IMG/VR virus record: IMGVR_UViG_3300010429_000387
Coordinates: 288,001 to 352,000 of that record
Reading direction: 5' to 3' (one strand)
DNA length: 64,000 nt
Source: a virus
Lineage: Duplodnaviria; Caudoviricetes
The notes beneath the pieces were generated by a model. The model had not been told where the DNA came from. It ran no database searches and saw nothing but the letters and a program-made list of their open reading frames with translations. The position numbers were made by a program, and so were the translations under genes. Positions 5,822-55,634 of the stretch are shown piece after piece (the stretch's first letter is position 1; each line of letters starts with the position of its first letter).

Positions 5822-6067
5822 TCAGCAGGCCAAGTTTTCGGTGACGATTCTTTCCAGCCGGGTCGGGGGTGGCGGGGTAGGAGGCGGAGGTGGACCCGCT
5901 ATCTCGTCCAAAATGGCAAAAACCCGAGCATCTTCCTCGGCTTGTATCTCCTGGATCGCCTGCCAGTGGAGCCCTCGGTACGGAGGTGGTGGAGGCGGAC
6001 GGGGTTGCCGCCTTCCCAGGGCAAAGTACCAACTCGCCTCGATACTGCCGTCATCCTCGAACAACAC
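5822..6067 (-). CDS. Small Pro-rich protein with capsid-like helix and RF-type tag
   Basis: GGTGTA-N10-GTG; QAIQEIQAEEDARVFAILDEIA; PTRLERIV. Confidence 0.7.
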   Translation of the reverse strand: MLFEDDGSIEASWYFALGRRQPRPPPPPPYRGLHWQAIQEIQAEEDARVFAILDEIAGPPPPPTPPPPTRLERIVTENLAC

Positions 6068-6114
6068 TGAAGTCTCCTACACCACTCAGGATTCTCTTAT
6101 GCGTTCGGGTCAGA

Positions 6115-6525
6115 GTGGTCTCCGAACTAGACAAGAAGTGGGTCAAACGGCAGCAAGCCTACCAGAGACGAAAGACCCTCCGGGAACAAGCGGTCGCCTA
6201 CAAGGGGGGCAAGTGTGTCATCTGTGGCTACACTGGATTCCCGAGTGCCTTCGACTTTCATCATTTTGACCCTAGGACCAAAGACTTCACCATCTCGAAG
6301 CGGGTGGTGGCGTTCGAGACCATCCGGCCAGAGCTGGACAAATGCGTTCTGGTCTGCTGTAGGTGCCACCGAGAGATCCACGACGGGCTTCACCCTGGGT
6401 ACCTCGTTCGGGACGATGACGACCGGGGCGGGTGGGATGGGTACGACCCCGATGAAGAGGACCCCAACGAGTTGACCTACGAGGAGGAGCTGGAGGTCAA
6501 CGAGGTCCTTGCTTCGGTCAGCTAG
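6115..6525 (+). CDS. HNH endonuclease-like protein with acidic tail
   Basis: CVICGY...FDFHH.DP..K...CVLVCCRCHREIH; start uncertain. Confidence 0.8.
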   Translation: MVSELDKKWVKRQQAYQRRKTLREQAVAYKGGKCVICGYTGFPSAFDFHHFDPRTKDFTISKRVVAFETIRPELDKCVLVCCRCHREIHDGLHPGYLVRDDDDRGGWDGYDPDEEDPNELTYEEELEVNEVLASVS

Positions 6526-6544
6526 ATTTTTTCTACGAACCTGG

Positions 6545-6572
6545 TTGAAAGATTCGGGGCTGGCCCGTTGTA
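6545..6572 (+). promoter_or_regulatory. Class B bipartite promoter TTGAAAG-N14-CGTTGTA
   Basis: 5 nt before ATG 6578; nine copies in window. Confidence 0.8.
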
Positions 6573-6577
6573 GAGAC

Positions 6578-6961
6578 ATGGCAACCCGATATGTTGAAGT
6601 CAGCAGCCAGGCGATTGAAAACCTCCTCAGCTCGAAGGGCTTCGTCCGCACGGTCCAGAACCGTGAGGTGGTCTATGTGTTCACGCACAAGGCCGACCCC
6701 TGCGTCAAGGTGAAGGTCTACACGAGCCTTCGGGACGGGGCCTCGGTTGCCCGTGGTTGTGGCGAGGACGCCATTCGGATCTGCACCGTGTTCGAGGGCA
6801 ACGGAAAGTCCTTCGGAATCGGCAAGTTCCCGAAGATCCTTCGCACGGGTTCTGAGGAAGCGGTTTTGGACCGCATCATCGAGCGTGCCCGTATTGCCTA
6901 CCTCCGTGGGACTGAGTTCGTGAAGGAGTCCCGAGCCCGCTTCGCCAATCGTGCCTCTTGA
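6578..6961 (+). CDS. Hypothetical protein
   Basis: Start fixed by class B motif. Confidence 0.75.
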   Translation: MATRYVEVSSQAIENLLSSKGFVRTVQNREVVYVFTHKADPCVKVKVYTSLRDGASVARGCGEDAIRICTVFEGNGKSFGIGKFPKILRTGSEEAVLDRIIERARIAYLRGTEFVKESRARFANRAS

Positions 6962-6973
6962 AAGGAGCCAACC

Positions 6974-7231
6974 ATGTTCGCTATCGGCCAGATCGTTTCC
7001 ACCCCTGGTGCCCGTGAGCGCTTCTCTACCGACTTCATGACCCTCTCCCTCGCCCGCCACCTGAACGGGGACTGGGGCGACCTCGATGACGAGGACAAGG
7101 CGTCCAACGACTCTTCCCTGGCCTCCGGGGGCCGTCTTCTGTCGTCCTACAAGAAGGATTCGGACACCCTCTGGATCATCACGGAAGCAGACCGGAGCGT
7201 GACCACGTTCCTCCTCCCCTCGGAATACTAG
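6974..7231 (+). CDS. Conserved small plasmid/phage-associated protein
   Basis: RH..GDWG...EDK..N...RLLSSY...WIITEADRSVTT.LLP.EY; AAGGAG RBS. Confidence 0.8.
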   Translation: MFAIGQIVSTPGARERFSTDFMTLSLARHLNGDWGDLDDEDKASNDSSLASGGRLLSSYKKDSDTLWIITEADRSVTTFLLPSEY

Positions 7232-7239
7232 GCGCCTGG

Positions 7240-7267
7240 TTGAAAGACTCGGACCTCGAACGTTGTA
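7240..7267 (+). promoter_or_regulatory. Class B promoter
   Basis: TTGAAAG-N14-CGTTGTA-N5-ATG(7273). Confidence 0.8.
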
Positions 7268-7272
7268 GGACC

Positions 7273-7563
7273 ATGGACCAAGTTCAAGCTCACGCTCTCC
7301 AAGTCGAGACCCAGGCTAAGCGCAAGGAGCTGGGTGCCCAGCTCCCGGCCCTTGCGATGAGGGTCTTTGCCCTTCAGGGCAAGCACTACCAGGGGAGCGG
7401 GTACCACTGGACCCTGGTCAAGGCCATCGGGGCCTTGCTTTGGAACGTCAACGACTACGACTCCAAATTCACTTGGGATGACCTGCTGGTCAACGAGGTC
7501 ATTTACGAGGACCTGGTCGAACAAGTCGGAGAAGCAGAGAAGGCGGTGGCAAGTGGTCAGTGA
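7273..7563 (+). CDS. Hypothetical protein
   Basis: Start fixed by class B motif. Confidence 0.65.
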   Translation: MDQVQAHALQVETQAKRKELGAQLPALAMRVFALQGKHYQGSGYHWTLVKAIGALLWNVNDYDSKFTWDDLLVNEVIYEDLVEQVGEAEKAVASGQ

Positions 7564-7870
7564 CAAGGATCAACTGAAACAGGCTCTCCATGAGGCTCAG
7601 GGGAGACTAGGGACCCCGCTCATGCCAAGTACCCCGGACCTGGTGATCGACAGTCTGCCTGACGCCTCAGACCTGGTTATACTCTCAGGACTCAACAACG
7701 AGTTGAGTGTCGCCAAGTTGAGGGAGCTTCGTCCACTGGCAGTCGAAGTGCTCTCAGAGGCAGGCATCTGTTCTTGCGGCACCAGAAGGACCTCGGTAGG
7801 GCGCTGCCCTTGTTGCAGCCTTCTCTGGCCGGACTCCCTCCCTAGGTACCAAATAAGTCGAGGCTGCTGA
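7553..7870 (+). CDS. Hypothetical protein with C-terminal Cys cluster
   Basis: CSCG...CPCC; overlaps upstream stop. Confidence 0.5.
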   Translation: MVSDKDQLKQALHEAQGRLGTPLMPSTPDLVIDSLPDASDLVILSGLNNELSVAKLRELRPLAVEVLSEAGICSCGTRRTSVGRCPCCSLLWPDSLPRYQISRGC

Positions 7871-7881
7871 GAGGTCGATTC

Positions 7882-8244
7882 ATGCGACTCCCAACGCTTG
7901 ATGCCTTTATCGCTCAGGCCAAGGTCTCCTGGCCCCACAACGGATGGGTCAGAGAGCCAGGGTTCTCTGGTCTCTACGTGAGGATCAGCCAACGGAAGAT
8001 CGATGGGGTCGAGCGTACCTTCCTCGACCTGGCGAACATGGAGGCACGGAAGCCGGGAAGCGGAACCCTCACCCGGTTGGTGGCCCGTCTGAAGGTCGAT
8101 CACCCGGACCTATCGCTGTACGTCGAGAGTGTCCTGAACCCTCGACTCCCTTCGATGCTCGTGAACAAGCTGGGATTCAAGCCGCACCCCTACCTACCTG
8201 GGTGCTTCTACCTTCTTCACCCCGAAGCCAGACAGGCACAGTGA
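7882..8244 (+). CDS. Possible GNAT-fold protein
   Basis: LDLANMEARKPGSGTLTRL...YVESVLNPRL resembles the acetyl-CoA binding segment. Confidence 0.45.
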   Translation: MRLPTLDAFIAQAKVSWPHNGWVREPGFSGLYVRISQRKIDGVERTFLDLANMEARKPGSGTLTRLVARLKVDHPDLSLYVESVLNPRLPSMLVNKLGFKPHPYLPGCFYLLHPEARQAQ

Positions 8245-8520
8245 TCGGCTAGGACCCGACCATACTCGGGGTGCCCCACCGACTCACCCTTCTTGATGTC
8301 CTCTGCCCCAACCGGCTGAAGCCCTTTGGCTTCCCGCTCCAAGTTGACCTCGGTCAGGAGAAGAGACCTCTCGTGAATGGCCCAGGCGGGGACCTTATTG
8401 CCGTCGGAATCCCGAACTTCCTCGGCTCTTTTGTCCCTGTCCATGCTAGCTACCAGCAAAACTTGGTAGAACCGTCGAGACAACACGTTTCCCATACCGC
8501 CCTCCGGTGTAAGAGGTCAC

Positions 8521-9684
8521 ATGAACTTCGATTGGAACGAGTACAAGGGGAATCTCACCTGGCTCCCTGACAGGACGCTCTATCTCACGAGGCACGGAAG
8601 CCATGCCTACGGGACGAGTCTCCCAACCTCGGATGTGGACATCCGAGGGATCTGCATCGCCCCGAAGACCTACTACCTCGGATTCTCTCAGGTTTTCGAG
8701 CAGGCGGACCAGAAGGAGCCAGACTTCTGCATCTTCGAGATCCGGAAGTTCCTCCGGTTGGCTTCGGATGCTAACCCGAACGTGCTGGAGTTGCTGCATA
8801 CGGACCCTGAGGATCACCTTCTGACGAGCCAACTGGGTCAGAAACTCATCGACCATCGGCACCTGTTCTTGAGCCGGAAGGCCAAGCACACCTTCTCTGG
8901 GTACGCCGTTTCTCAGCTCAAGAGGATCAACACCCACTACCGGTGGCTGAAGAACCCACCTACGGGTGCCCCTTCGAGGGGAGAGTTCGGACTTCCCGAG
9001 CGGACAGTCATTCCTGGGGACCAGCTTGCGGCTGCCAACTCTGCCATCAAGAAGCGCCTGGACGAGTGGAACTGGCATGAGCTGGAGAACATCGAGCCCG
9101 CCATGCGTCAGGCCATCCAGGATGAGTTCTACCGTCGCCTGACCGAGATCACCCAGTGGTCCTGGGAGCAGACTGATGAGAAGGTCTGGCAGGCAGCAGC
9201 AAACAGCCTGGGCCTGTCTACCAACTTCATCGAGTTACTAGACAAGGAGCGCCAGTACACGGCTCGCCTTCGAGAGTGGCAGCAGTACAACGAGTGGAAG
9301 AAGAACCGGAACCAGGACCGGGCCAAGCTCGAAGAGAAGTTCGGCTACGACACGAAGCATGGGATGCACCTGGTTCGCCTACTCCGAATGTGTCGGGAGA
9401 TCCTGACCGAGGGCAAGGTCTTGGTTCGTCGCCCGGATGCGGAAGAGCTTCTTCGGATCCGGGCTGGGGCCTGGGACTACTTCGAGCTGGTGGCTTGGGC
9501 GGAGCAACAGGACAAGGAACTCGAAGAGCTGATGAAGACCTCGTCCCTTCCAAAGCAGCCTGACCGGGCCAGGATCGATGACCTGTGCATCGAACTTGTC
9601 GAGGAATCCTTCATGACTTCGTGGAAGGCCATCCCACCTGCTGGTGGGGACCGGTTCAGCCACATTCTTGGGGATGACAAGTAG
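8521..9684 (+). CDS. RlaP/YcgL-like pol-beta superfamily nucleotidyltransferase, RF-tagged
   Basis: GSHAYG...SDVDIRG, ANPNVLE, YDTKHGMHLVRLL; GGTGTA-N9-ATG; ends DRFSHILGDDK. Confidence 0.88.
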   Translation: MNFDWNEYKGNLTWLPDRTLYLTRHGSHAYGTSLPTSDVDIRGICIAPKTYYLGFSQVFEQADQKEPDFCIFEIRKFLRLASDANPNVLELLHTDPEDHLLTSQLGQKLIDHRHLFLSRKAKHTFSGYAVSQLKRINTHYRWLKNPPTGAPSRGEFGLPERTVIPGDQLAAANSAIKKRLDEWNWHELENIEPAMRQAIQDEFYRRLTEITQWSWEQTDEKVWQAAANSLGLSTNFIELLDKERQYTARLREWQQYNEWKKNRNQDRAKLEEKFGYDTKHGMHLVRLLRMCREILTEGKVLVRRPDAEELLRIRAGAWDYFELVAWAEQQDKELEELMKTSSLPKQPDRARIDDLCIELVEESFMTSWKAIPPAGGDRFSHILGDDK

Positions 9685-9922
9685 GCGGGATCGAGTCGTG
9701 AGTCAGCACCCTCTCGAAGCGTGAAGCTGCTGGGGATCCACTTTCAGGGTGACCCGGCTGAGCGTATGCAAGAAGGGCGGATTCAATCTCCGCCCTTCTT
9801 CTTTCTGCCCTTGCAAGACTCATTGCCCTTGAGGCCACAATGGGTTTGACCCCTGGGATGCCTTGGATCTCCACGTAGTAGAGACCTTGCTTTTCCAGGT
9901 GTTGAAGCACAACCTCGATCAC
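9656..9922 (-). CDS. Hypothetical protein, RF-tagged (SRFERVL)
   Basis: ORF carries the recurring tag. Confidence 0.6.
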   Translation of the reverse strand: MIEVVLQHLEKQGLYYVEIQGIPGVKPIVASRAMSLARAERRRAEIESALLAYAQPGHPESGSPAASRFERVLTHDSIPPTCHPQECG

Positions 9923-9976
9923 GTCTTTACAGAGGTGGACACATAAGGGGAGTAGTCCTTCGATGCACTGTGGCTT

Positions 9977-11419
9977 GTGATGGACCCGATCATCAAAGCT
10001 GTGGCCCTGAGATACCGGATCGCCTCCAATGTTGCCCGTCGGTTTGCTGCCGTGGTTGACAAGGCAAAGCTGGAGCAGTGGAAGAAGGACCTCCGGGTCA
10101 TGACCAAGATTTACAGGGACATTCCCCTGGACTTCTCTTGGGACGATGATTCCACCAGTGAGAAAGCTAAGAGCCAGTTCCTTGAGGCTCAGAAGCTCTT
10201 CCGAGTCTTCAGAGATGGGTTCACTGACTGGGTCTACAAGGTGGTCCTTCCCAAGAAGGACAAGAAGGACCAGGGGTACCTAGAGCGTGAGGTGTCAAAG
10301 TCTGCTTGGGACTTCCAGTACACGCTGAGCCTTCTGTTCCCCACCATGTACGGGAACATCCCGGAACTCTCGAAGCTCAAGCATGAGCGGGAGCGTAACA
10401 TCAAGCGCTACCAGGTGGCAGCTACGAAGGCGTTCAAGGACCTGGATGAGTATCTGGCCTCTCAGGGAGGCGGACCCCTTCAGCGGCACGACCCGGTAGA
10501 GACCCTGGATGTCGGAGGGATTCGGGTCACCCTTGAGAACTATGGTCGGGATGAGGACAGTGAGGACGACCTCCACAAAACCTTGAACCAGCTCAAGAAG
10601 TGGGTTTCAGGGGTCTCGAAGGCAGGCTTCCCTGGGGCTGTTCAGGGCCTCTCAGTCACCATCAACTTCGACCAGAAGGAAGCCCTCACCAACGGGATGT
10701 ACAACCCAGCCACGGATACCCTGACCCTCCTCCCTCTTGGGATGGCAGGGAATGATACCATCCGGACGGTGACCCACGAGATCGGGCATCGGTTCTACTT
10801 CCGAGACCTCCCTGGTCAAGCTCGGTCCTACTGGGATGAGGTGATGGAGTCCAAGGGCATCAAGATCACCAAGGAGGACATCCATCGGTTCGCTGATGCT
10901 GTCATTCCCAAGGTGGACCCGGACAATCCCAGAGCGATGAACGATGAGGCCAAGGTTCTCCAGGTGGCCCTTCAGGCAGCTCGGAATGAGTCGGATGAGC
11001 TTCGCTTCAGGGAGCTTGCCAAGTTACCGGTTGTCTCCTGGGATGCTAGGACCTTCGACCGTAGCAAGTACCTGGACCTCCTGATGGGCAGCGAGGGTGA
11101 GACCGTTCTGGTGGAGGAGATCACAGACTATGGTCGAACCTCCCCTGTTGAAGCCTTTGCAGAGTGTTTCCAGCTCTGGATTCTCAAGGGTCCCCGAGCC
11201 CTCGGACCCTGGACCCAGGAGTTCTTCCGGACCATCTGCCGGGCAGGTGGCGCAAAGATTGCGTCTGAGCACTACACAGAGGTTTGCGGCAAGTGCGGAA
11301 CGGTGATCAGTCAATGCCGGTGCATGAGCCCCAACAAGACGACCCGAATCGGACTCTGTGACGAATGTGCCGGAATCAAGAGGGAAGACCCTCTAGCTCA
11401 GTGGTTCCCCGTTCCCTGA
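9977..11419 (+). CDS. Zincin-like metallopeptidase (HExxH) with N-terminal VAxRF motif; candidate virion-packaged protein
   Basis: VTHEIGHRF, TDYGRTSPVEAFAE; C-terminal Cys cluster. Confidence 0.7.
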   Translation: MMDPIIKAVALRYRIASNVARRFAAVVDKAKLEQWKKDLRVMTKIYRDIPLDFSWDDDSTSEKAKSQFLEAQKLFRVFRDGFTDWVYKVVLPKKDKKDQGYLEREVSKSAWDFQYTLSLLFPTMYGNIPELSKLKHERERNIKRYQVAATKAFKDLDEYLASQGGGPLQRHDPVETLDVGGIRVTLENYGRDEDSEDDLHKTLNQLKKWVSGVSKAGFPGAVQGLSVTINFDQKEALTNGMYNPATDTLTLLPLGMAGNDTIRTVTHEIGHRFYFRDLPGQARSYWDEVMESKGIKITKEDIHRFADAVIPKVDPDNPRAMNDEAKVLQVALQAARNESDELRFRELAKLPVVSWDARTFDRSKYLDLLMGSEGETVLVEEITDYGRTSPVEAFAECFQLWILKGPRALGPWTQEFFRTICRAGGAKIASEHYTEVCGKCGTVISQCRCMSPNKTTRIGLCDECAGIKREDPLAQWFPVP

Positions 11420-11713
11420 TGTAGTGACGGTGTAGCTGCATGACGGTGGAACCCGTCATGCAAGAGTACCCCTGGATCCAGGGGTCTGGTTGACCCGGAC
11501 CTGGTGGACGGATCTTGCCGAAATCGCTAGATAAGTTAGCCACTGGTTTCGACCTGAAACAGGGGCATTCAAGAGGGTTCCACCTGCTACTTCGAGAACA
11601 TCGTTGACCCACCTGGAGACTTTTCTTGGTGGGTCAAGTCGATTTTTCAGAGAACCTAGGACCCATCGGTGTAGATCGAGGGTAACCTGAACCACGAAAC
11701 AGGAGCGTACTGA

Positions 11714-14065
11714 ATGTCATCCTACAAGGTCTCCGACGGGCTTTTCCTCGTTCGCCAACCAGTTGCCAAGGTAGCGGCTCCGGCCAAGCCTGCTGAGACT
11801 CCGGTCAACCACATTGTCGTCATCGACTGCTCCGGCTCGATGTACGGGGAACTGCCGAAGATTCGTGAGCAGCTCAAGAAGAAGCTCCCGAAGCTGATCG
11901 GAGACAAGGACACCCTCTCGGTGATCTGGTTCTCTGGCCGTGGAGAGTTCGGAGCGCTCCTCGAAGCGGAGCCTGTGGCGACCCTGGCGGACCTGGCCGA
12001 CGTGAACAAGGCCATCGACCGGTGGTTGAAGCCGGTGGGCCTCACGGGCTTCAAGGAGCCCCTGGAAGAGGTCTCCAAGCTCATCGACCGAGTAGCCAAG
12101 AAGAACAAGGCGGTCTTCAGCCTCTTCTTCATGAGCGACGGCTGTGACAACCAGTGGTCACGGGCGGACATCCTCAAGACCGTCGAGAAGGCTGCTGGGG
12201 GCCTCTCCTCTGCCACCTTCGTGGAGTACGGCTACTATGCTGACCGTCCCCTTCTGACGGCCATGGCCGAGAAGGCCGGTGGGCAGCTCATCTTCGCTGA
12301 GCACTTCGACAAGTACCAGCCCGCCTTCGAGGCCATCATGTCCAAGAAGCTCTCTGGGGCTCCTCGGATCGAGGTCAAGGTTCCGGGTGGGACCGTGGGC
12401 GGGTTCGCCTATGCCCTGGCCGACGGGGACCTCACGACCTATGCCGTGGAGGAAGGGAAAGTCCAGGTACCCGAGGATACCACGTCCCTCTGGTGGCTCT
12501 CCCCCTTCGACCCCATGAACGGGAAGTCCCCCGATGCGGGTGCTCTGGTCAAGGACTTCGCCAAGAGCGGCAAGGACACGGAGATCATCGCCCCCCTCTA
12601 TGCGGCGGTCTCCCTCTACAGCGTCAGGATGAAGCCCGAGACGGTCTTTCCCCTCCTGAAGTGCCTCGGGGACGTGGCCTTCATCGAGCAGTTCAGCACT
12701 TGCTTCGGAAAGCAGAAGTATTCCGAGTATATGGACGCATCGAAGGCAGCAGCTTTCGACGTGAAGGCCCGGTTCACCAAGGGCTACGACCCGAACAAGG
12801 TCCCGGCGGATGATGCCTACACGGTGCTCGACCTTCTCCAGCTCCTCTCCTCGGACGACACGAACCGGGTTCTCCTCGACCACCCCGAGTTCAAGTACGC
12901 TCGGATCGGCCGTGGCCGGATCGATGCTGACGAGGTGATGACCGAAGAAGAGCAGGTCAAGGTGGCCGAGATCACCAAGAAGATGGCGGGGGAGAAGAAC
13001 GCCTCCAAGATCAAGGCCCTGCAAGAAGAGCTGGCAGCCCTCACGGCAAACAAGCCCGAGGCTCTGAAGTTCGAGGCAGACCCGGTTTCGGATGGGTACC
13101 CCATCTCCAGCCTGACCTACAACGAGGACCGCCCCAACATCTCCATGCTGGTTCGCAAGACCGGTAAGGTGGACCTCTCCAAGCGCCTCCCGGCTGAGTT
13201 CAAGGGGAAGGTACCCGACTCTTTCCCGACGTTCATCTTCCGGAACTACGCCGTGGTCAAGGATGGCCTCGTGAACATCGAGAAGTTGCCCGTTCGAGTG
13301 ACGAAGGAAACGGCCAACAAGCTCGCCACCCTCCTCCCTGAGGAAGCCAAGCCCTCCAAGCTCACGGTTGCTGGGGACTATGTCGAAGGCGTGATCAATC
13401 TCCGGGCTCTTCCGGTGATCAACCGTCGCATGGTCAAGGCGGCCTCGGCCAAGGTCCTCTTCGAGGAGCAGTTCGCTCTGGAGTCGGCTCGGGCTGCCCA
13501 GAAGGTCTTCAAGGCGTACCGTGACGAGAAGGTTGCCAAGAAGGAATCGGCATCCTTCAAGCTCACCTACGGAGAAGCGGCAGCCGAGTGGCTGAAGAAC
13601 CAAGGATTCACTGACTACAGTGGGTTCGGACCCAAGGTCGTCCAGGCCGAAGCCACCGACTTCTACATGGGCAAGGAGCTTTCGGTCAGCATCAAGGGCC
13701 TCTCTTCCCTTCCCAAGGTGGCCGATGTGAAGGCCAAGATGGGCGGGAAGATGACCCCTGGGATCGCCCTGATGGCTCCCTACGTGAAGGAAGTCGAAGC
13801 CTGGCTGGCCTCGGATGCCTACACGAAGGCCCCCAACAAGGATGAAGCCTTCATCTCCTGGATTGACGGCAAGGCCAAGGAGTCCATCAACAAGGCTCGT
13901 CAGTTCATCTACGAGATTGCCTGCATCAAGTTCGCAATCGTGGTCGGGCAGGTCTGGTTCTCGGAGTTTGCATCCCTCGATGAGAACTCGATGACCCTCG
14001 ACTTCGGTGACCTGAAGGGCGTCCTCTGCAAGGTCGATATGAAGGAGATTCAAGTCAAAATCTGA
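11714..14065 (+). CDS. Large VWA-domain protein
   Basis: VIDCSGSM MIDAS, GLT, FMSDG; AGGAG RBS; strong codon bias. Confidence 0.85.
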   Translation: MSSYKVSDGLFLVRQPVAKVAAPAKPAETPVNHIVVIDCSGSMYGELPKIREQLKKKLPKLIGDKDTLSVIWFSGRGEFGALLEAEPVATLADLADVNKAIDRWLKPVGLTGFKEPLEEVSKLIDRVAKKNKAVFSLFFMSDGCDNQWSRADILKTVEKAAGGLSSATFVEYGYYADRPLLTAMAEKAGGQLIFAEHFDKYQPAFEAIMSKKLSGAPRIEVKVPGGTVGGFAYALADGDLTTYAVEEGKVQVPEDTTSLWWLSPFDPMNGKSPDAGALVKDFAKSGKDTEIIAPLYAAVSLYSVRMKPETVFPLLKCLGDVAFIEQFSTCFGKQKYSEYMDASKAAAFDVKARFTKGYDPNKVPADDAYTVLDLLQLLSSDDTNRVLLDHPEFKYARIGRGRIDADEVMTEEEQVKVAEITKKMAGEKNASKIKALQEELAALTANKPEALKFEADPVSDGYPISSLTYNEDRPNISMLVRKTGKVDLSKRLPAEFKGKVPDSFPTFIFRNYAVVKDGLVNIEKLPVRVTKETANKLATLLPEEAKPSKLTVAGDYVEGVINLRALPVINRRMVKAASAKVLFEEQFALESARAAQKVFKAYRDEKVAKKESASFKLTYGEAAAEWLKNQGFTDYSGFGPKVVQAEATDFYMGKELSVSIKGLSSLPKVADVKAKMGGKMTPGIALMAPYVKEVEAWLASDAYTKAPNKDEAFISWIDGKAKESINKARQFIYEIACIKFAIVVGQVWFSEFASLDENSMTLDFGDLKGVLCKVDMKEIQVKI

Positions 14066-14082
14066 CCTGAATCAGGCATACT

Positions 14083-14122
14083 GAACGGCGGAGTAGGCTA
14101 CCTGCTCCGCCGTTCTGCATTT
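14083..14122 (+). terminator. Probable terminator hairpin
   Basis: gaacggcggagtagg-cta-cctgctccgccgttc. Confidence 0.6.
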
Positions 14123-14140
14123 CTGGTGTAGTGTGTGCTC

Positions 14141-44618: not shown

Positions 44619-44622
44619 CGCA

Positions 44623-45021: not shown

Positions 45022-45056
45022 GCTTCTTTCAGACACCGATCTTGAAGGAGGCCACC

Positions 45057-45335
45057 ATGAGAAGGCTCGTTCGACTGTGCAATGCAATCCGTGCCATCTC
45101 TCCCTATGGGGGCCTGAGTTTGACTGGGCTCCCGTCTGAGGATGGATCTGCGGATCTGTGGGACGGTAAGATTACAGTGGGTGGTGTGATTCTCGTTGAG
45201 ACCAAGGGAGAACTGGAGGCTGTACTTGATGAGCTGACTCACAAACTTGAGAAGATGTCCCAAAGAATGCTCGCTAGGCTCACCTCTGTCCCGCCGCCTC
45301 CAGGGGAAGAACCCCCACCTAGCTCTCAACAGTGA
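45057..45335 (+). CDS. Hypothetical protein
   Basis: AAGGAGG RBS. Confidence 0.65.
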   Translation: MRRLVRLCNAIRAISPYGGLSLTGLPSEDGSADLWDGKITVGGVILVETKGELEAVLDELTHKLEKMSQRMLARLTSVPPPPGEEPPPSSQQ

Positions 45336-45336
45336 G

Positions 45337-46086: not shown

Positions 46087-46091
46087 GTTGA

Positions 46092-46379
46092 CTAGCTTCC
46101 TGGTGGCTTGAGGGGCTTGTCCTTCTCCCAGGGGAACACAACCGGAGGGGCCTTCTGGACCTTCACCTTGGGGGGCGGAGTGTCCTTGAAGGCCCGGTCG
46201 AGCTGTAGATGGTAGTATTTCTGTTCAGCCCACTGCCTCTGTGACTTCGAGAGGTTGATGATCCGACCATTCTCCAGGTCGGTGAGCATCCCCTTGAACG
46301 CCTTCTCCTCGCTGGAAGACAACCGAGCCTTCACAGCGAGGAGAGACCTCAGGATGGTGAGGTCAGTTGGCTTGCTCAC
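46092..46379 (-). CDS. Hypothetical protein
   Basis: GTGA overlap. Confidence 0.6.
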   Translation of the reverse strand: MSKPTDLTILRSLLAVKARLSSSEEKAFKGMLTDLENGRIINLSKSQRQWAEQKYYHLQLDRAFKDTPPPKVKVQKAPPVVFPWEKDKPLKPPGS

Positions 46380-47596: not shown

Positions 47597-47638
47597 GGCG
47601 TTCGCTTGAGATACACCGGCTTGCATTGAGAACGGAGT

Positions 47639-49153
47639 TCAGATGTCGAAATCTCTCTCGAACCTCGAAAGAGGGATGAGGTTCCCCTCCTCTTCGGACC
47701 CATCTGCTGCGAAGGACCACATGTGTTTCTTCGCACAGTGGTAGGCACGGATCTTGATCTGGCTCCGTTCCTCAACTGGTTTGTTTCGACCCCCGTACTC
47801 ACCACAGTACGGGCACTTGAGTTCTGCCATGGGTACCCCATCTTTCCCCAGGGGCTCGAAGTCCCGCTCCAAGGTCGCATACGGGGCGTCCTCCCAGTTG
47901 CTACTGATCTTGACCTCGGGCTCGAAACGTTCTACCCGTTGAAGCCGGACCATTCGTTGAACGTCATCGAGCTTGGTGACCCAGAGGGTCCTTCTGGGCC
48001 GTCGAAGGGTTCGGATGAAGGCACCAGGGGCGACCCAGTTGGGGACATAGGCCCCGCTAGACCTGGGGACAATGGGAGTCAGTTCTGGACGATGGGGTCG
48101 AACCTCCAAGAGGGACCCAGCAGGGCGCCAGTTCTGTTCCAGGTTGGTCATTGCAAAGCGAACGGGCCTGACCTCACCCTCCAAGGTCAAGGTCATGGCC
48201 CCGGTTAGAGGGTCAAGGCCCAACACTTGGTAGCTTTGGTTGTCTCTTCGCTGAACGATGTGAGATCCCACTGACAGCCAAGGTGGTGTTGGAGTCTCCA
48301 GTGGGCGGTACCAGGACGCCACCTGTTGAATGTTGAAGGCTCGAACCCTGCCCCCAAGCTGAATAGGGCTCGTATCCGACCGTTCGATGTCACGAATGTG
48401 AACCTGCCCGTTGGAGACCCCTGTGATGATCCCTCCTTGGTCACCTATGGTCGAAGCCAACCTGGCTCCGGGTCGCATCCAGCTTGGTGGTTCGGCCCTG
48501 ACCTGCCTCAAGGTCACGAAGTAGTGAGGGGTCAACCCAGTAGAGGTGGGGAGAACTCCGAACCGAGTTGGGGTCTCCGTCCTGGTCCGGTCGAGGGAGG
48601 TGGTGACTGATTCCACTCGGAACTCTACCGTCTCTCCGTTCTCCTCCACTAGCATCCCATTGCGAAGAACTTCGACCCTCTGACCGGTCATCACCTGGAA
48701 GGGCATCGGGACGTTGTTGATCTCGATGATCGGACCCGTGGGGTGAGCCACCTGATGTTCGGTCACGCCGTCCATGGGTAGGGACACCCGAACCATCTCT
48801 GGCGGGTTCGGGGGGAAGGGGTCTTCCCCTACCGCAATGTCCCTTCTGGGGGGCATCGTTCCGACATACTCGGGGGGCCAGGAGACGTAAACGTTGCCTT
48901 GCCCAAAGCCGAACTGGTCCTCCCCAACAATGGTGAAGTCGTTACGCCTGATCTCTGGAAGCGAAATCCAGTCCCTCTCAAAGTTGAGCAAGGGGATCGA
49001 AACCACCTGGTCGTTGTTCACCCGGAGGTGTACCTCATCTGAGCCTATGAAGACCACATAGGCACGGGAGGCAGCCGCAACCTCCGTAGCACTTGGGTCA
49101 CGGGGGCGGAGGTACAGTATCTCACCTATCTGAAGCCAGTTTGGAGCGGGCAC
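47639..49153 (-). CDS. Repeat protein with four PxW..G beta-rich modules and C-terminal Zn ribbon, RF-tagged
   Basis: PNWLQIG, PSWMRPG, PPWLSVG, PNWVAPG; CPYC..C..H; LSRFERDFDI; GGTGTA-N9-GTG. Confidence 0.75.
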   Translation of the reverse strand: MPAPNWLQIGEILYLRPRDPSATEVAAASRAYVVFIGSDEVHLRVNNDQVVSIPLLNFERDWISLPEIRRNDFTIVGEDQFGFGQGNVYVSWPPEYVGTMPPRRDIAVGEDPFPPNPPEMVRVSLPMDGVTEHQVAHPTGPIIEINNVPMPFQVMTGQRVEVLRNGMLVEENGETVEFRVESVTTSLDRTRTETPTRFGVLPTSTGLTPHYFVTLRQVRAEPPSWMRPGARLASTIGDQGGIITGVSNGQVHIRDIERSDTSPIQLGGRVRAFNIQQVASWYRPLETPTPPWLSVGSHIVQRRDNQSYQVLGLDPLTGAMTLTLEGEVRPVRFAMTNLEQNWRPAGSLLEVRPHRPELTPIVPRSSGAYVPNWVAPGAFIRTLRRPRRTLWVTKLDDVQRMVRLQRVERFEPEVKISSNWEDAPYATLERDFEPLGKDGVPMAELKCPYCGEYGGRNKPVEERSQIKIRAYHCAKKHMWSFAADGSEEEGNLIPLSRFERDFDI

Positions 49154-49224
49154 AGTCTCACCTACACCAAAAATGTTGAAAGCTCACCGTGACCTAGCTA
49201 TGGTTCGGTGTTTAGGTAGCCTGG

Positions 49225-49602
49225 ATGGACGTACAGGTACTTTCCTTTCAGAAGCCGAAGCAGTTCATTCGGGGGTTCCCCCTCGAAAAGCGAAGGCACT
49301 TCAAGGTGATAGAGCTTCCGGTAGGCTCTCAGATCCTATCAGCGGAAGATCAGTCCCACGAAGGAACCTTGATGCTCTGGGTCATGCTCCCTGCTACCAA
49401 GGACTTGCCCCTGGAGCGAAGAACCCTCCTGGTTACCTACGAGGGGGAGGAGTTCGAGATTTCGGAGGAAGAGATCCCCGGCATAAACTCTGTGATTCCG
49501 AACGTCTACCACATCGGGATGTGGGTGGACCGGACCATGGACGATGGGGACCTCGTCTCGGTCACCGGTCATGTCCTAGAAGTCCTTGGGGATGAAGACT
49601 GA
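49225..49602 (+). CDS. Hypothetical protein
   Basis: ELP.G.QILS...LW...TG.VLE-type small phage protein. Confidence 0.6.
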   Translation: MDVQVLSFQKPKQFIRGFPLEKRRHFKVIELPVGSQILSAEDQSHEGTLMLWVMLPATKDLPLERRTLLVTYEGEEFEISEEEIPGINSVIPNVYHIGMWVDRTMDDGDLVSVTGHVLEVLGDED

Positions 49603-49630
49603 CCCCGCCATCTCGGTGTAATTCTGTTTG

Positions 49631-50158
49631 ATGAGCGACTCTTCCCGAAGCCGATTCGACCGCACCCTCGACATCGACGATCCATCAGAAGTAGCAGTGT
49701 CTCGGTTTGAGCACATCAACCGGGAAGCTGGCCTGGTGGATGCCAAGGTTCTGGCTGGAGCGACTCTTGAAGCTAGAACCGAGGAAAAACGTATCTGGAT
49801 TGGGCTTCGTCCGGACAACCTCTGTGGACGGTACCCGTGTTTCCAGACGGGGTTGATGTCCCTCGGGGAGGCCCTTGAGGGGGACCCGCTGGAAGAGGTT
49901 GAGGGGTCGTGCCCTGGGGCAGATCCTATCGACCAGGCCCTTCTTGCTGGAGCCACCCTTACCGTGGAGCGGCTGGGTGATGCTCTCATCGCCACCTGGG
50001 TGCGTTCCCTGCCTCTCAGGACCTTTCAGTACGAGGGCAAGGAGCACAGGGTCTACCGGAAGGGGACCCGCAAGGCGAAGGGCCTGAGGGTCCTTGAGGC
50101 GGCCTTGGCGGCCTTGGCGGCAGAGGAGAAGGTCTCCGAAGGGTCGATGCTCAGCTAG
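49631..50158 (+). CDS. Hypothetical protein with two N-terminal RF tags
   Basis: SRFDRTLDIDD, SRFEHINRE; GGTGTA-N10-ATG. Confidence 0.7.
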   Translation: MSDSSRSRFDRTLDIDDPSEVAVSRFEHINREAGLVDAKVLAGATLEARTEEKRIWIGLRPDNLCGRYPCFQTGLMSLGEALEGDPLEEVEGSCPGADPIDQALLAGATLTVERLGDALIATWVRSLPLRTFQYEGKEHRVYRKGTRKAKGLRVLEAALAALAAEEKVSEGSMLS

Positions 50159-50600
50159 GTAGGTTGATCAGCAAGGTGTGAATCGAGGTCTGAAGGTCGA
50201 AGTCCAGGGCATTCTCTCGAACGAACAGCTCTGAAACCCCAGAGACCACGAAGATAGCCCAGTCCTTCACCCTCGGACGCATCACATAGATCGGGCGTAT
50301 CCAGTTCGGTATGGTCCGGTCTGGTGCTTCTCCAATGACCCGACACCCAACCCTACACGGGTCGTAGCGCCAGATGTCATCCTTGGATACCACCATCTTG
50401 AGAATCTGGTCCCGCATCTTCGGGGGGAGCACTCCAAGCCTGGCAAAGGGCTCCATCTCCCCGGATTGGAAGGAGAAATAGGCGTAGTGACCACCCTCTT
50501 CCTCCTCCGATATGATGTAACCTTCAAGATCGAGCACCCGAGTCAGTGGGTAGGACCCGGACTGACCTCTTTGGCTGATCGGAGCTGGTTCCAGTAGCAT
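50151..50600 (-). CDS. Hypothetical protein
   Basis: GGAGGT RBS. Confidence 0.6.
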   Translation of the reverse strand: MLLEPAPISQRGQSGSYPLTRVLDLEGYIISEEEEGGHYAYFSFQSGEMEPFARLGVLPPKMRDQILKMVVSKDDIWRYDPCRVGCRVIGEAPDRTIPNWIRPIYVMRPRVKDWAIFVVSGVSELFVRENALDFDLQTSIHTLLINLPS

Positions 50601-50612
50601 AGTTACCTCCCC

Positions 50613-51314
50613 TCACTTGCGCTTCACCTCATCCAAGATTGATTGAATCAACTTGAACCGCCTACGGCTAGCCTCCCTCAGTTGGGACAGGGGTCGGATG
50701 CTGACCGGCTTTTCTAGCCACTCGGTTAGACTGCCCATCGGTTCTTCACCGAAGCTGAGCAGATGGGGGTCTAGGGGAAGCAGTTCCCTCACGAGGGCCT
50801 TGCTGTGAGTCACCAGGACTGAGCCAACAAGGGGCTCAGGAGCCGACTCAATGAAGCTCCGAATTTCAGCCCCGGTGGAAGCAGCCCAGTCGTCCGAGAG
50901 ACCGATGTCTGGCTCGTCCCAGAAGATGACGTGCCGGGTCTCCCGGCCCTTGCTGGTTCTGATGGCCCCCAGGACCGTCTCAGAAGAGTTCTCGCCCGTG
51001 CTCTGCCACTCCTCTGAGCCGTAGACGAAAGCCAGAGCTGGGTTGTAGGCGCAATTTCTGCGCCCCTCCATCGAGAGATGGATGCACTCGATCTTGGTCT
51101 TGGAACAGACCCCCTGGATGATGCGTCGAAAGAAGCTCTTCCCAGAGGCATTGCCACCCACAGCCACGACCAGCTTCCCCTTCCCTGGAACGAAGTTCGC
51201 AGAGATGGGCACTTCCCCGTTGTCGTTCGGGTGGAAATAGTCCAGCGTCAAGCACTCCTGAATCAAGCTCAGGGTATCATTGACCCGGAAATCGCTCTTC
51301 TTTGCCCTGGGCAT
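50613..51314 (-). CDS. ABC-type ATPase-fold protein
   Basis: GGNASGKS, STGE, FWDEPD.GL, VTHS; class B promoter. Confidence 0.75.
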   Translation of the reverse strand: MPRAKKSDFRVNDTLSLIQECLTLDYFHPNDNGEVPISANFVPGKGKLVVAVGGNASGKSFFRRIIQGVCSKTKIECIHLSMEGRRNCAYNPALAFVYGSEEWQSTGENSSETVLGAIRTSKGRETRHVIFWDEPDIGLSDDWAASTGAEIRSFIESAPEPLVGSVLVTHSKALVRELLPLDPHLLSFGEEPMGSLTEWLEKPVSIRPLSQLREASRRRFKLIQSILDEVKRK

Positions 51315-51378
51315 ACCTGGACCTCTCTCCCGTACAACGTCCAGGTACACCAACCTTTCAACTAGGCTCGTCGATTTT

Positions 51379-51699
51379 TCACGGGACCCACTGAGGGTTG
51401 CGGGCGGAACTCGGCATTGCGCTGGGGGCGGAAGACGCTTTGGGTGTTGAGCTGGATGCCTTCGGGGTGGCCGAGTAGAAGTCGTCCCCTACATAGCAGC
51501 ACATCCCGGCGGGGCAACCAGTCCCAACAGGCCCACCACAGACCTCGTTGTTCCAACAGCAGGACAACGGCTTAAGGTTGCAGGGGTGGGCTCGTGTGCC
51601 ACACGGGTATTCTGGCGACACGGGGTTATCGATCTTGTTGCAGTCCTTGCATCCGGAGAAGGTCGCAAGGGCGGCAATCAGCAGCAATGTAGTTCGCAT
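51379..51699 (-). CDS. Cys-rich lipoprotein
   Basis: Lipobox ATFSG-C; multiple Cys; AAGGAG RBS. Confidence 0.7.
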   Translation of the reverse strand: MRTTLLLIAALATFSGCKDCNKIDNPVSPEYPCGTRAHPCNLKPLSCCWNNEVCGGPVGTGCPAGMCCYVGDDFYSATPKASSSTPKASSAPSAMPSSARNPQWVP

Positions 51700-51794
51700 G
51701 AGGTCTCCTTCCCCTAGACCTCTTCATAGAGGATTCTTTCAAATCTGCTCCGACGGATGGTCACTTCGATAACCTCTGGAGGCGGCTGAAGCAC

Positions 51795-51840
51795 TGGACC
51801 AGACCTGTCAATCAGGTTGGACCAGACCTGTCAATCAGGT
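51795..51840. repeat. Perfect 23-bp tandem duplication causing frameshift and premature stop
   Basis: tggaccagacctgtcaatcaggt x2. Confidence 0.95.
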
Positions 51841-52588
51841 CGAACCTTCGTTGCCGGATGTCATCCACTCGAATCGTCGGGTTCGAGATGATTTCAAACT
51901 CGGGTACCGTGACCCGTTGAGCCTGGATGGCTCTCGGGTTGACCACCCCTATTCCGATGTTCTCGGTCACCGTCCACCCAAGGGGGAGTCGGTGGGGCTC
52001 ATCAGCCCCCATGACCGTCAACTCAGACCGTAGTGGGGTTGCAGCCATCGAGGCTTCGAGGTCTTGAAAGATTTGCCGGTCGAAGCTCTCCTGGATCTCT
52101 CTCACCGTCGCCTCAATCATGTCAACGCTGAGGTTGGGCTGGGGGGCTTCTGGGTTGGCGAAAGTTGAGGGGGCCTCGATGCTCATCTGACTTGGGTCGA
52201 AGATCCCAATGAGCCCTGACGGGGGACTGGAAGACACGACGAACCCAACAGGGTTGTCTCCGTTCATGGTCAGTCCACCAGAGGTGGGATCGATTCCCAC
52301 AGGGGTCCCAGGGACGATTCTGGAGACCTGCATCGGACCCCAAATCGAGGGGATGAGTCCCTGTCGCATGACCGTCCCCTTGGAGTTCAAGAGGTAGCTG
52401 ACCTGAGGGTTCTCCGGACCTAGGTCACGAAACTGGACCTCAACCCCCATCAAGTTGGGAACGGTCGGGTCCTCTCGAATCTGGAGGGATGCCAGGTTCC
52501 GGTCCCCTTGCAGAAGACGGATCTCTTCCTGGAAGATTCGGTGCTCGTTCGAGTCTCGGGTTGGGTACCTGAGTGTCCAGGTGGGCAT
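51812..52588 (-). CDS. Mosaic protein with capsid-like fragments; without the duplication it would end at 51714 with SRFERILYEEV
   Basis: WTLRY N-terminus; RVTVPEFEIISNPTI..DIRQRRFDLIDR. Confidence 0.7.
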   Translation of the reverse strand: MPTWTLRYPTRDSNEHRIFQEEIRLLQGDRNLASLQIREDPTVPNLMGVEVQFRDLGPENPQVSYLLNSKGTVMRQGLIPSIWGPMQVSRIVPGTPVGIDPTSGGLTMNGDNPVGFVVSSSPPSGLIGIFDPSQMSIEAPSTFANPEAPQPNLSVDMIEATVREIQESFDRQIFQDLEASMAATPLRSELTVMGADEPHRLPLGWTVTENIGIGVVNPRAIQAQRVTVPEFEIISNPTIRVDDIRQRRFDLIDRSGPT

Positions 52589-52619
52589 GGGGCTACCTAC
52601 CCCGGTGTACTCAAGGGCT

Positions 52620-53006
52620 ATGCCACGGAAGAAAGACCCATGGTTGGCTCCCCTGGATGAGTCCTGGATCGAGGTGGGAAAGAAGATAATCCCACTGCCT
52701 CCAAATCTGGCTGGGAGCTATTCGTTCAGCTTTGGAGACTCCCCTAGTTGGAGCTGTAGCAATCTCCCTGCGAACCCGACTCCCCACGATATGCCGGTGT
52801 TCGTGATCTCAAGGATTGATGTGACGGGGAACGGTACCCGGATGGTCCACTTCCACCTGGTGGCAGACCCTCGTCACGGGTCTGCTTGGTGGTCGAAGGA
52901 CATCAAGTCGAAGTTTCGTCCGGCCCCTAGTCCGAAGAGAGCGCCTCGCCCGAAGAAGCCGAAGCCAACACCCTTGAGTCGGTTTGATCGTGAGGACGTA
53001 GTTTGA
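52620..53006 (+). CDS. Hypothetical protein, RF-tagged (LSRFDREDVV)
   Basis: GGTGTA-N10-ATG. Confidence 0.7.
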   Translation: MPRKKDPWLAPLDESWIEVGKKIIPLPPNLAGSYSFSFGDSPSWSCSNLPANPTPHDMPVFVISRIDVTGNGTRMVHFHLVADPRHGSAWWSKDIKSKFRPAPSPKRAPRPKKPKPTPLSRFDREDVV

Positions 53007-53238
53007 TGAAGACTGGGGTGTTCGGTCCCACCCAGGCCCCGATGGTGTTGAACTCGAAGAACTCAAGAGCAGCCTCGTAGTCCATCCCCTGCCCAACCAG
53101 AATCTCCAAGCACTTGTCGTAGTCGTAGGAGGCCACAGGGGGCTGGCAGGCTCGGTAGCAGATCCCTAGGTAGGCCCTCTCGAACCCATCGGCTAGGAGG
53201 GCATTCGGATTCTCATCTTCGAGTTCTTCAATGCTCAT
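52927..53238 (-). CDS. Conserved phage hypothetical protein
   Basis: ADGF..A.LG...YD...EAALEFFEFNTIGAWVG..TPVF. Confidence 0.75.
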   Translation of the reverse strand: MSIEELEDENPNALLADGFERAYLGICYRACQPPVASYDYDKCLEILVGQGMDYEAALEFFEFNTIGAWVGPNTPVFIKLRPHDQTDSRVLASASSGEALSSD

Positions 53239-53612
53239 GACAGGATCGGCCTCAGTGCTTGGGCCACCACAATGCAGCCCTCTCGTTGGTTGGCATCCAC
53301 CATACAGGCATCCAGCCCTCCCGTGAACCCGAAGAGCTGAATGACCTCGTTGACCACCACTGGGTTCGGGAACCTGTTCCGGTCAGGTACCGAAATGGAA
53401 AGGTGCCGATAGATCATCTGGTCTATCTGGCTCTCAGTAAGAGAGAACACGACTCGGAAGTCCCCGATGTTCATGACATAGTTCGGGTTGTCGCCCGGAG
53501 CCTTCACCTTTGGACCTGGGCGGTAGATGTTCTCCGGCTTCGAGGCAAAGTCCAGTACCTCTGTCGCCCTGGACTTGGCTTCGTTGTCAATGATGAGGAC
53601 TCTGAGGCTCAT
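53235..53612 (-). CDS. Hypothetical protein
   Basis: GGTGTA-N9-ATG; RHLSIS. Confidence 0.7.
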   Translation of the reverse strand: MSLRVLIIDNEAKSRATEVLDFASKPENIYRPGPKVKAPGDNPNYVMNIGDFRVVFSLTESQIDQMIYRHLSISVPDRNRFPNPVVVNEVIQLFGFTGGLDACMVDANQREGCIVVAQALRPILS

Positions 53613-53620
53613 GCCCCCAT

Positions 53621-54832
53621 CTACACCACGGGTTCCCTGGAGAAGCGATCTGCGGTGATGGTGATCTCTGGCATGATGATGGCTTGGGGTCCTGGGTCGG
53701 GGACGCCTGGCTGACGGAAGACTCGCAAGACCCCCTGGTGGCTTGCCAGAGGGGCCAAGGCGGGGTCACTGAGCAGAGCGATGAGGTCCATGTCCTCACC
53801 GTCTACACGGCAGCTACGGGCCACCAGGACGCAAACCTGAGAGTAGTCCGAGTGGTGCATGTCATGGGCGGTTCCTCGACCTTGGATGAGCCGGAGGTAC
53901 TGCCCGTTCGGCCCCTTGGCGAGGGATGCCACAGCTTCCCCTTTGATTCCTTGGTAAGAGGCCCCCTCGAAGTGCCACCCGTAGTTCATGGCCTTCCCGG
54001 TCTTCACCAGGAGGTCGTTGTCGATGACCCAGTGCTTGCCAACCGTACCCAGCAGCCCGGTGGGGTTTCCCAAGCTGACCAGGTCGGCATCGATCTTCCC
54101 CGAGTGCTCGATCATGGCAGCCGTGGATGACGTGATCTGCCTGGGGTGTGGGTTGAGCTTCACCGTCCGCTGGATCCACATGAGGTCGGCCAGCTTCGGG
54201 GTGAGCAGAAGGCACCCGGTCATGTCGGCAATCTTCTGCTGGGTCTCTGCCGTGACGTTGACCCGTACCCCTTCGATCTTCAGAGCATCGGAGAAGACTT
54301 GAAACTCAGCCGTATGCTCGTTGTAGGTTGAGGTTACGGTCGAGAAGCTGGCCTCGTAGTGCCCTTGCGAGACATAGTCGAGGATAGCATTCTCACGATC
54401 CGGACCAGCGTTCTCGGGAAGTTGAAGGGTCATGCTTCGACGGAGCATGACTGCTTTATGCTCGGCTCCCGAGGTCTCCAAGAGGTCGTGATTGACCACT
54501 CGGCTGAACCGAGTAGTCGGGTTCCCGGTGATGAGGCACCAAAGGTCTTCAATCTGGACTACTTTGCCCAGCGTGACTTTGTTCTTGATGGGGTTGAGGA
54601 ATCCGACTGGAGTAGTCTCAGTAGAGCGAACTTCTAGCTGCCCGAACTTCAAAGGTAGGAGCTGGGGTACGGTCAGCACCTTCCAGGGGTCGTTCCCAGG
54701 GTTCCCCGTGTACATCCTGAGTTCGAGAAAGTCCTTCGGGTTGATCTCCACATAATCGGGGTCAAACCCCTCGATTCTGGACATCGTCGCTAGGACGGTG
54801 GCGATCTTCTTGCCAAGGGTCTCAGTCATCAT
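53621..54832 (-). CDS. Fusion protein: capsid-like N-terminal piece plus uncharacterised His/Asp-rich domain; two RF tags
   Basis: KHWV...NYGWH...IQ..G.AH...HSDYSQ; TTRFSRVV, DRFSREPVV. Confidence 0.7.
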   Translation of the reverse strand: MMTETLGKKIATVLATMSRIEGFDPDYVEINPKDFLELRMYTGNPGNDPWKVLTVPQLLPLKFGQLEVRSTETTPVGFLNPIKNKVTLGKVVQIEDLWCLITGNPTTRFSRVVNHDLLETSGAEHKAVMLRRSMTLQLPENAGPDRENAILDYVSQGHYEASFSTVTSTYNEHTAEFQVFSDALKIEGVRVNVTAETQQKIADMTGCLLLTPKLADLMWIQRTVKLNPHPRQITSSTAAMIEHSGKIDADLVSLGNPTGLLGTVGKHWVIDNDLLVKTGKAMNYGWHFEGASYQGIKGEAVASLAKGPNGQYLRLIQGRGTAHDMHHSDYSQVCVLVARSCRVDGEDMDLIALLSDPALAPLASHQGVLRVFRQPGVPDPGPQAIIMPEITITADRFSREPVV

Positions 54833-55634
54833 CGAAGAGGATCCTGGAGAACCGGCTCTCGGGCTCCTTCGGCTCATCGCAAGGAGCCCATTCCCTTGCG
54901 AATGACGTGATGATCTGCCTTCGAGGTGGGTCGAACGACCGCCACACCTGGAACTCGACGTTGAGCATCTCGACCTTGATGATCCTGGCAAACTCCCCAT
55001 TCCGGGTGACCCACTGATCGAGCTTCAGCCACTCTGGGCGGACCCAGGGCTCGGTGGAGGTGGAGCACCCCATTGAAACCTCTGGGATGAGTCCAGACCT
55101 CAGGGTTGCCATGGCACCTGGGTCGGGGTCACGGTCGTAGACTGGAAGGGCACCCTCTGGAATCTGGTCAACGAGGAACGTTCGTCTGGCTACCGAGCTG
55201 TAATCTATCCTTGCTCGAAGCGGGGCTATCATTGAGGCCGCAAGACGGGACCGCCCCTCAGAGCTGTTGATGAACTGGGAGATGATGCTCTCCCGAGCCT
55301 CTGGGGAGAGCATGTCCCCGTTCCGGTTCGGGGTGTCAGGGGGTCCTAGGAGGTTCTGGAACCCAACAACCGTTCTTTCAGTGAAGGGCCTTCGTCGCTC
55401 GTAGAGGTCATGGAGGGCATAGGCTTCTGGACCCTCCCGGTCGTTCGCCATCCTGACGTTGAGTCGGTAGTAGCGGGGGTTGGTCGAGCCAGGGTTGGGG
55501 TCAGGGGGGTCGAGGATGAGAGTTGTACTGAGTACAAACTCGTCCTGCTCGAACCGAGCCCGGTCTACTCGGGCCTGGATCCGGTCGTCTACCGTGTTCT
55601 CATATCGAAGTGTCCACAGGGGACCGGGTGGCAT
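54822..55634 (-). CDS. Mosaic protein with capsid-like N-arm fragment, RF-tagged (SRFSRILFDDD)
   Basis: WTLRY N-terminus; GRSRLAASMIAPLRARIDYSSVARRTFLVDQIPEGALPVYDRD. Confidence 0.75.
   Translation of the reverse strand: MPPGPLWTLRYENTVDDRIQARVDRARFEQDEFVLSTTLILDPPDPNPGSTNPRYYRLNVRMANDREGPEAYALHDLYERRRPFTERTVVGFQNLLGPPDTPNRNGDMLSPEARESIISQFINSSEGRSRLAASMIAPLRARIDYSSVARRTFLVDQIPEGALPVYDRDPDPGAMATLRSGLIPEVSMGCSTSTEPWVRPEWLKLDQWVTRNGEFARIIKVEMLNVEFQVWRSFDPPRRQIITSFAREWAPCDEPKEPESRFSRILFDDD

Follow-up and report, generated by a model that had tools for sequence, protein, structure and literature searches.

Few triggers of bacterial immunity are as well established as capsid proteins. The sensors Avs7, Avs8, and Avs10 bind the A-domain of the monomeric major capsid protein (MCP) (10.64898/2026.01.04.697583), CapRel, in a predicted complex, touches both the P-domain sheet and the spine helix (PMC9712102), and in the Thoeris system ThsB1 is bound by a mutant capsid protein while the active complex is not formed (PMC11312562). 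Here we describe four genes, A to D, in a 64-kb stretch of DNA (the window) from an uncultured tailed phage (IMG/VR record IMGVR_UViG_3300010429_000387, positions 288,001 to 352,000). In these genes, copies of segments of the phage's own MCP (N-arm, spine helix, P-domain strands, and A-domain) have been grafted on small carrier proteins together with a portable peptide, the RF tag, and have diverged much faster than the MCP itself. As their most likely role we tentatively propose that of candidate paralogous decoys against bacterial capsid-sensing immunity.

The source of the pieces is an HK97-fold MCP of the phage G gp27 type (PDB 6WKK; PHROG 2522; PF05065). Unlike such a protein, each gene holds 20 to 110 of its residues, partly in permuted order and on unrelated carriers, and cannot build a shell. 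The T4 protein gp24 is a full-length capsid paralog. Ccm of SaPIbov5 (PMC8569155) is likewise a full-length, capsid-derived protein with another job. Ccm and gp24 retain the complete fold and become part of the shell, whereas the genes described here encode tagged fragments, several of them per genome, outside the head module; no near full-length MCP paralog of the Ccm/gp24 class was found, the longest relative covering MCP residues 3 to 189.

The logic proposed here is that of PsXLP1 of Phytophthora, a disabled paralog that shields PsXEG1 from a host binder (PMC12003678), although in that case a eukaryotic pathogen uses a near full-length enzyme paralog whose function has been shown, and here fragments of a structural protein have a putative function. 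Counter-defense by occupying a host binder is also known from DSAD1, directed against DSR2 (PMC11087589), from DNA mimics (10.1101/2025.06.06.658234), and from Acb2/Tad1 (PF24729); the text of the EVADES preprint does not mention the capsid. If our reading is right, the putative decoys differ from known decoys and competitors in being made of pieces of a structural protein of the virus itself, joined to a portable tag. Our literature search, incomplete in coverage, found no description of capsid-fragment genes or of a capsid-derived inhibitor. Avs7/8/10, Dsr1, CapRel SJ46, Thoeris ThsB1/B2, and Lit are proposed targets of the pieces, not relatives, and read the A-domain, the P-domain sheet, and the spine helix; Lit recognizes the Gol peptide, in the N-arm region of T4.

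Capsid protein segments in four accessory genes

The window corresponds to positions 288001 to 352000 of G000, a complete 407-kb genome with terminal repeats. Coordinates given without a prefix are positions in the window, where genes A to D and all features described below lie on the (-) strand. The MCP (P0001) has 290 residues and is encoded outside the window (G000:133118-133990), in a head module at 118 to 134 kb of G000 that also includes the terminase, portal, and protease. It matches PF05065 and aligns with phage G gp27 over residues 2 to 283 (208 bits). The original prediction had likened the segments to the capsid proteins of Bxz1-like myoviruses; the HK97 fold agrees, but the MCP is closer to gp27 than to Bxz1-type MCPs, to which identity is about 29%. 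The labels N-arm, E-loop, spine helix, A-domain, and P-domain are assigned to MCP segments from the gp27 alignment and the general HK97 pattern.

Gene D (54822-55634, 270 amino acids) gives the clearest case. Behind a ferredoxin/ACT-like N-terminal domain (55386-55625), a common fold (best match Z 7.5, root mean square deviation [rmsd] 3.0, 70 residues aligned), it carries a copy of MCP residues 1 to 65, comprising the N-arm and the first E-loop strand (55119-55313; E 8e-22), then an SH3/Tudor-like barrel (54879-55043; Z 6.7, rmsd 1.8, 53 aligned) and a C-terminal RF tag (54825-54863), assigned by the tag matrix and predicted as a helix in the model. In a search of 7857 six-frame open reading frames (ORFs), D aligned with the MCP over residues 1 to 74 at 53% identity. 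The first half of the MCP piece is helical in the D model and the second half is poorly ordered (predicted local distance difference test [pLDDT] score <50 for 135-195). A scan for close relatives with D alone found none. The 13 residues 3' of the piece (55065-55103) resemble the residue-179 motif of the phage's own prohead protease, a likeness that is too short to be significant.

Gene B (51812-52588, 258 amino acids) shares its N-terminal domain (52391-52588) with D, as seen by alignment and in 84 clusters, and continues with scrambled MCP pieces. These are a weak copy of residues 202 to 234, an A-domain strand (52292-52390; 8.7 bits, E 0.5 genome-wide), a degenerate spine-helix-like segment (52052-52117), a copy of residues 243 to 288, the C-terminal P-domain strands (51923-52045; E 5e-7, 40.8 bits), and, 3' of the latter, a copy of residues 83 to 115 (51824-51922). 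B has orthologs in L087, L209, L210, and L212, and the permuted junction is the same in orthologs; the ORF search aligned B with MCP residues 246 to 288 (E 5e-7) and then 76 to 115 (E 4e-5), again out of MCP order. A modeled complex of B residues 150 to 258 and D residues 105 to 176, which would rebuild one P-domain in trans, scored 0.01, a value that speaks neither for nor against this idea. The helix of gene A, said to be echoed in B, does not reach significance in B by itself, but the corresponding segment of L209 shows it clearly (E 2.5e-9). Both D and B match the PHROG 2522 major head protein. By eye, the middle of B orthologs (L087:3440-3850, P0139, and P0130) shows terminase-like and decoration-like motifs that searches did not confirm; one of the terminase-like motifs aligns instead with MCP residues 238 to 245.

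Gene A (5822-6067, 81 amino acids) consists of a proline-rich linker, a copy of MCP residues 119 to 140 from the spine helix (5894-5959), a second proline-rich linker, and an RF tag (5825-5863; tag matrix score 17.0). The copy reached E 4e-4 with the whole-MCP profile and E 3.5e-8 with a spine-helix sub-profile that was picked afterwards; BLAST against the MCP was weak (72% over 18 residues, E 0.04), and reversed ORFs, used as a control, gave zero matches to the MCP profiles. The ortholog P0206 is 86% identical in amino acids, with nonsynonymous and synonymous rates (dN and dS) of 0.077 and 0.376, and the genome G007 holds a similar layout of helix, proline-rich stretch, and tag. Matches of A to proline-rich Pfam families were dismissed as compositional.

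Gene C (53621-54832, 403 amino acids) resembles the MCP at the level of fold. It comprises an HK97 A-domain-like fold (54584-54817), which in relatives is a stand-alone tagged gene of 108 to 134 amino acids, an internal RF tag recognized from alignments as a former C-terminus (54485-54520), a widespread 250-residue phage domain, and an RF-type tag at the C-terminus found by pattern match (53624-53656). C gave zero sequence matches to the MCP or A-domain profile. A profile-profile comparison of its N-terminal domain gave 66% (E 6e-5), dropping to 34% with more sequences. In structural comparisons with the C model (pLDDT 72), HK97 capsid A-domains filled rows 1 to 7 and most of the top 50 matches (best match Z 6.2, rmsd 3.7, 84 aligned), and a Foldseek search of BFVD found nothing below E 0.001. 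We thus hold with moderate confidence that the modeled N-terminus of C is A-domain-like. The 250-residue domain (53678-54436) has >250 homologs, mostly stand-alone, and belongs to no Pfam or PHROG family; an Atlas search gave no name for it or for the N-terminal domain of D.

The original prediction of MCP fragments in four accessory genes is thereby borne out by sequence for A, B, and D, and for C by profile and fold, with moderate confidence. The quoted segments all lie inside their ORFs, significant local alignments to the phage's own MCP exist, and none of the four encodes a complete capsid protein, each covering <40% of the MCP and B in permuted order.

The RF tag and the carrier family

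The RF tag is a short C-terminal peptide common to unrelated proteins, including helicase-, kinase-, and RecA-like ones; it sits at protein ends and in loops and is modeled as a short amphipathic helix. Called genes gave 13 matches, compared with 1.75 in shuffled sequences. In its placement on unrelated proteins it is like the T4 capsid targeting sequence (CTS), the encapsulin cargo-loading peptide (CLP), and the scaffold hook. The tag had been ascribed to all four genes, which holds for A, C, and D; in B, a 23-bp tandem duplication (51795-51840) shifts the frame and truncates the protein, so that the tag (51714-51752) is now out of frame. Two other assemblies of this phage carry the duplication too, and it is identical in L207 and L208. 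Because all seven aligned orthologs keep the tag in frame, its loss in B is recent.

The profile of the N-terminal domain shared by B and D gathers 84 clusters at 50% identity, with the tag pattern near the end in 57 members. MCP pieces occur in 48 of the 84 clusters and in none when reversed; among these 48 carriers, the N-arm is found in 42, the C-terminal strands in 9, and residues 80 to 116 in 7. The longest relative, P0123, holds MCP residues 3 to 189 behind the shared domain, which suggests an ancestral MCP fusion that may have been pared down in different ways.

A large tagged ORF of the window (47639-49153) has repeated SH3-like units and a zinc ribbon and is without a family match. 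Outside the window, weak MCP pieces (E 0.004 to 0.02) occur at G000:16319-16984 (L226; residues ~87 to 101) and G000:363993-364379 (L186; residues ~253 to 269), both with an RF tag at the end, and at G000:398208-398699 (L187; residues ~65 to 99). At the end of the putative scaffold (G000:131071-132348) is a short aromatic helix that slightly resembles W-type variants of the tag.

Specificity to the MCP and selection on the pieces

Copying is largely specific to the MCP. In 17 of 29 related records, among them all six complete genomes, the MCP has 41 extra partial matches, of which 28 are below E 0.001, while the portal and the putative tail tube have 0 each in the same records, a decoration-like gene has 2 weak ones, and the terminase has 2 paralogs. 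In an all-against-all comparison of its own genome, no head protein except the MCP recurs as short pieces in accessory genes. The number of MCP-piece matches varies from 1 to 8 per genome despite near-identical MCPs.

The MCP itself is nearly frozen. Among the best 80 viral contigs, it is 92 to 99% identical across the clade, far above the 59 to 86% that these records show for the portal, the putative tail tube, and the terminase, and at an amino acid identity of 95%, only 59% of third codon positions are shared. These figures bear on the idea that the pieces are assembly poisons against competing phages, giving superinfection exclusion. Fragments could plausibly act as dominant negatives, four related records are classified as provirus, and the pieces differ by 30 to 55% from their own MCP; with MCPs so alike, however, self and competitor are hardly distinguishable and the phage's own capsid would be struck too, so a poison against related phages, as originally suggested, is very unlikely.

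The pieces are under purifying selection. Between orthologs, the dN/dS of MCP pieces is 0.12 to 0.35 where dS is measurable, and at most 0.46 for A-domain copies in relatives. Compared with their own MCP, synonymous sites are mostly saturated, the proportion of synonymous differences (pS) being 0.83 for D, 0.93 for A, and 0.72 and 0.51 for the pieces of B. The MCP-invariant residues P31, R33, D37, Y38, R43, P52, and G54 are retained in 91 to 100% of the carriers that cover them. In the D family, the MCP piece is 51% conserved and the domains 28 to 31%, a contrast that is inflated since the carriers were chosen by that piece. A weakly resolved tree of the 62-column N-arm piece places the pieces outside the cluster of near-identical MCPs.

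Scrambled piece order and the recent frameshift in B might suggest functionless recombination debris of the MCP gene. The low dN/dS, mostly saturated synonymous sites, intact frames, and synteny argue instead that the pieces are old and selected, neither debris nor fresh copies; their better conservation than the flanks and their branching outside the MCP cluster, weakly supported, point the same way. Selection refutes debris for A and the B-type and D-type genes, and we give it practically no credence overall.

Large in-frame insertions at conserved sites, probably inteins, were observed in the portals of G008, G009, and G027 (near residues 341 to 346) and in about 10 terminases (near 131 to 161), and the related genome G020 has a degenerate terminase paralog of 392 amino acids (G020:51437-52318). 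The metagenome-assembled genome bins checked for a host were scattered over phyla.

A putative promoter motif and fusions to Acb2/Tad1 hairpins

The motif YGGTGTA occurs upstream of about 70 nonstructural genes, including those for GroEL, ClpX, and methylases, often 9 to 10 nucleotides before the start codon. GGTGTA precedes none of the 64 called genes at 140 to 240 kb, nor the MCP or portal gene. It lies 10 nucleotides upstream of A (6078-6083), where a promoter-like function is likely, and before an operon of a DUF1653 gene, D, and C; B has a one-base variant. The DUF1653 gene (55637-56114, with GGTGTA at 56109-56114) heads this operon and is the same neighbor in L203 and L210; relatives preserve the order DUF1653, D, C and have B-type genes 1 to 2 kb downstream. 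GGTGTA probably marks a promoter class with leaderless transcripts. A sigma-70 -10 box was ruled out, there being no T six bases on.

The motif bears on a further explanation, that the pieces are head-binding handles or assembly modulators, which would bind scaffold, MCP, or chaperonin and load their carriers into the head or tune the timing or size of assembly. That the MCP alone is copied and its invariant residues are retained would suit such a role, as would a tag that is a short amphipathic helix like scaffold hooks, the protease-like motif 3' of the D piece (not significant), and the binding of the 80alpha scaffold helix to the N-arm, here the commonest piece (PMC5644958). Genes A to D, however, lie at 294 and 340 to 344 kb of G000, away from the head module with scaffold, protease, and portal, and belong to the GGTGTA class, as do GroEL, ClpX, and methylases; the repertoire differs widely among genomes with near-identical MCPs; the tag is also on helicase-, kinase-, and RecA-like proteins; and an MCP piece is fused to an anti-defense hairpin. 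We consider handles a possible but rather unlikely explanation.

The fusions concern PF24729, the Acb2/Tad1 hairpin. All three such hairpins in the 29 records, which exceed the Pfam cutoff (in G020, G022, and G023), are fused to copies of the MCP A-domain (residues 160 to 241), one or two copies at each locus (L084:1376-2281, L085:1242-2147, and L232:1195-1713); similar hairpin fusions in L083, L086, and L088 are under the cutoff. Through such fusions, A-domains could be displayed in the manner of a pseudo-capsomer.

All six complete genomes contain a ClpX zinc-finger gene. In G000 a ClpX-like ATPase with a zinc finger is intein-split, with a LAGLIDADG domain (G000:280061-282388; L222:4561-6885), and a GroEL-like gene lies at G000:83430. 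Such a ClpX, or another machine, could serve as the dock for the tag if the genes encoded proteolysis or quality-control adaptors whose piece captures misfolded MCP or a host sensor. The tag can stand both at protein ends and within loops, but its co-occurrence with ClpX within one clade says little, and we regard adaptors as quite unlikely.

Discussion

Of the three roles proposed in the original prediction, once the capsid origin is granted, that of decoy is the best supported, albeit indirectly. The pieces are derived from the MCP, unable to do its job, and selected, as expected of a decoy, and the decoy view fits the frozen MCP, the shifting and faster-evolving copies, the probable separate regulation, and the anti-defense fusion. 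Pieces made in the nonstructural expression class, before or apart from the MCP, would bind host receptors that recognize the HK97 fold, of the STAND/Avs, CapRel, Thoeris TIR, or Lit type, and leave activation incomplete. They may thereby shield an MCP that is too constrained for mutational escape, and the tag might bring the pieces, or a receptor bound by them, to a shared partner. Unproductive binding of a sensor is possible because the mutant capsid protein binds ThsB1 without an active complex.

Several points weigh against decoys. Avs sensors recognize folded cores over broad interfaces, and the D piece is poorly ordered alone; a bound piece could trigger a sensor rather than block it. 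Other sensed proteins, namely portal, terminase, and tail tube, are hardly copied, and the higher conservation of the MCP eases the detection of pieces in other genomes, though not in the phage's own. The N-arm, present in 42 of the 48 carriers, binds scaffold in other phages (PMC5644958). As the pieces span most of the MCP, their overlap with sensed surfaces is weak evidence. Finally, two of the three Acb2/Tad1 fusions are close orthologs, and G000 has no match to PF24729, the fusions being found only in relatives.

Decoys and the tag might also be combined in a degrader system, in which capsid-piece baits catch sensors and the tag passes them to ClpX or another common machine. We hold this to be distinctly improbable; if true, one tag with exchangeable baits would remove many immune sensors. 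Should the pieces prove to be head handles instead, they would represent a new way of addressing proteins to a capsid. If the decoy reading is true, the retained pieces would indicate which epitopes hosts recognize and could serve as baits for new sensors. A frozen MCP accompanied by a shifting set of capsid pieces offers a direct test of whether self-derived decoys shield a conserved trigger.

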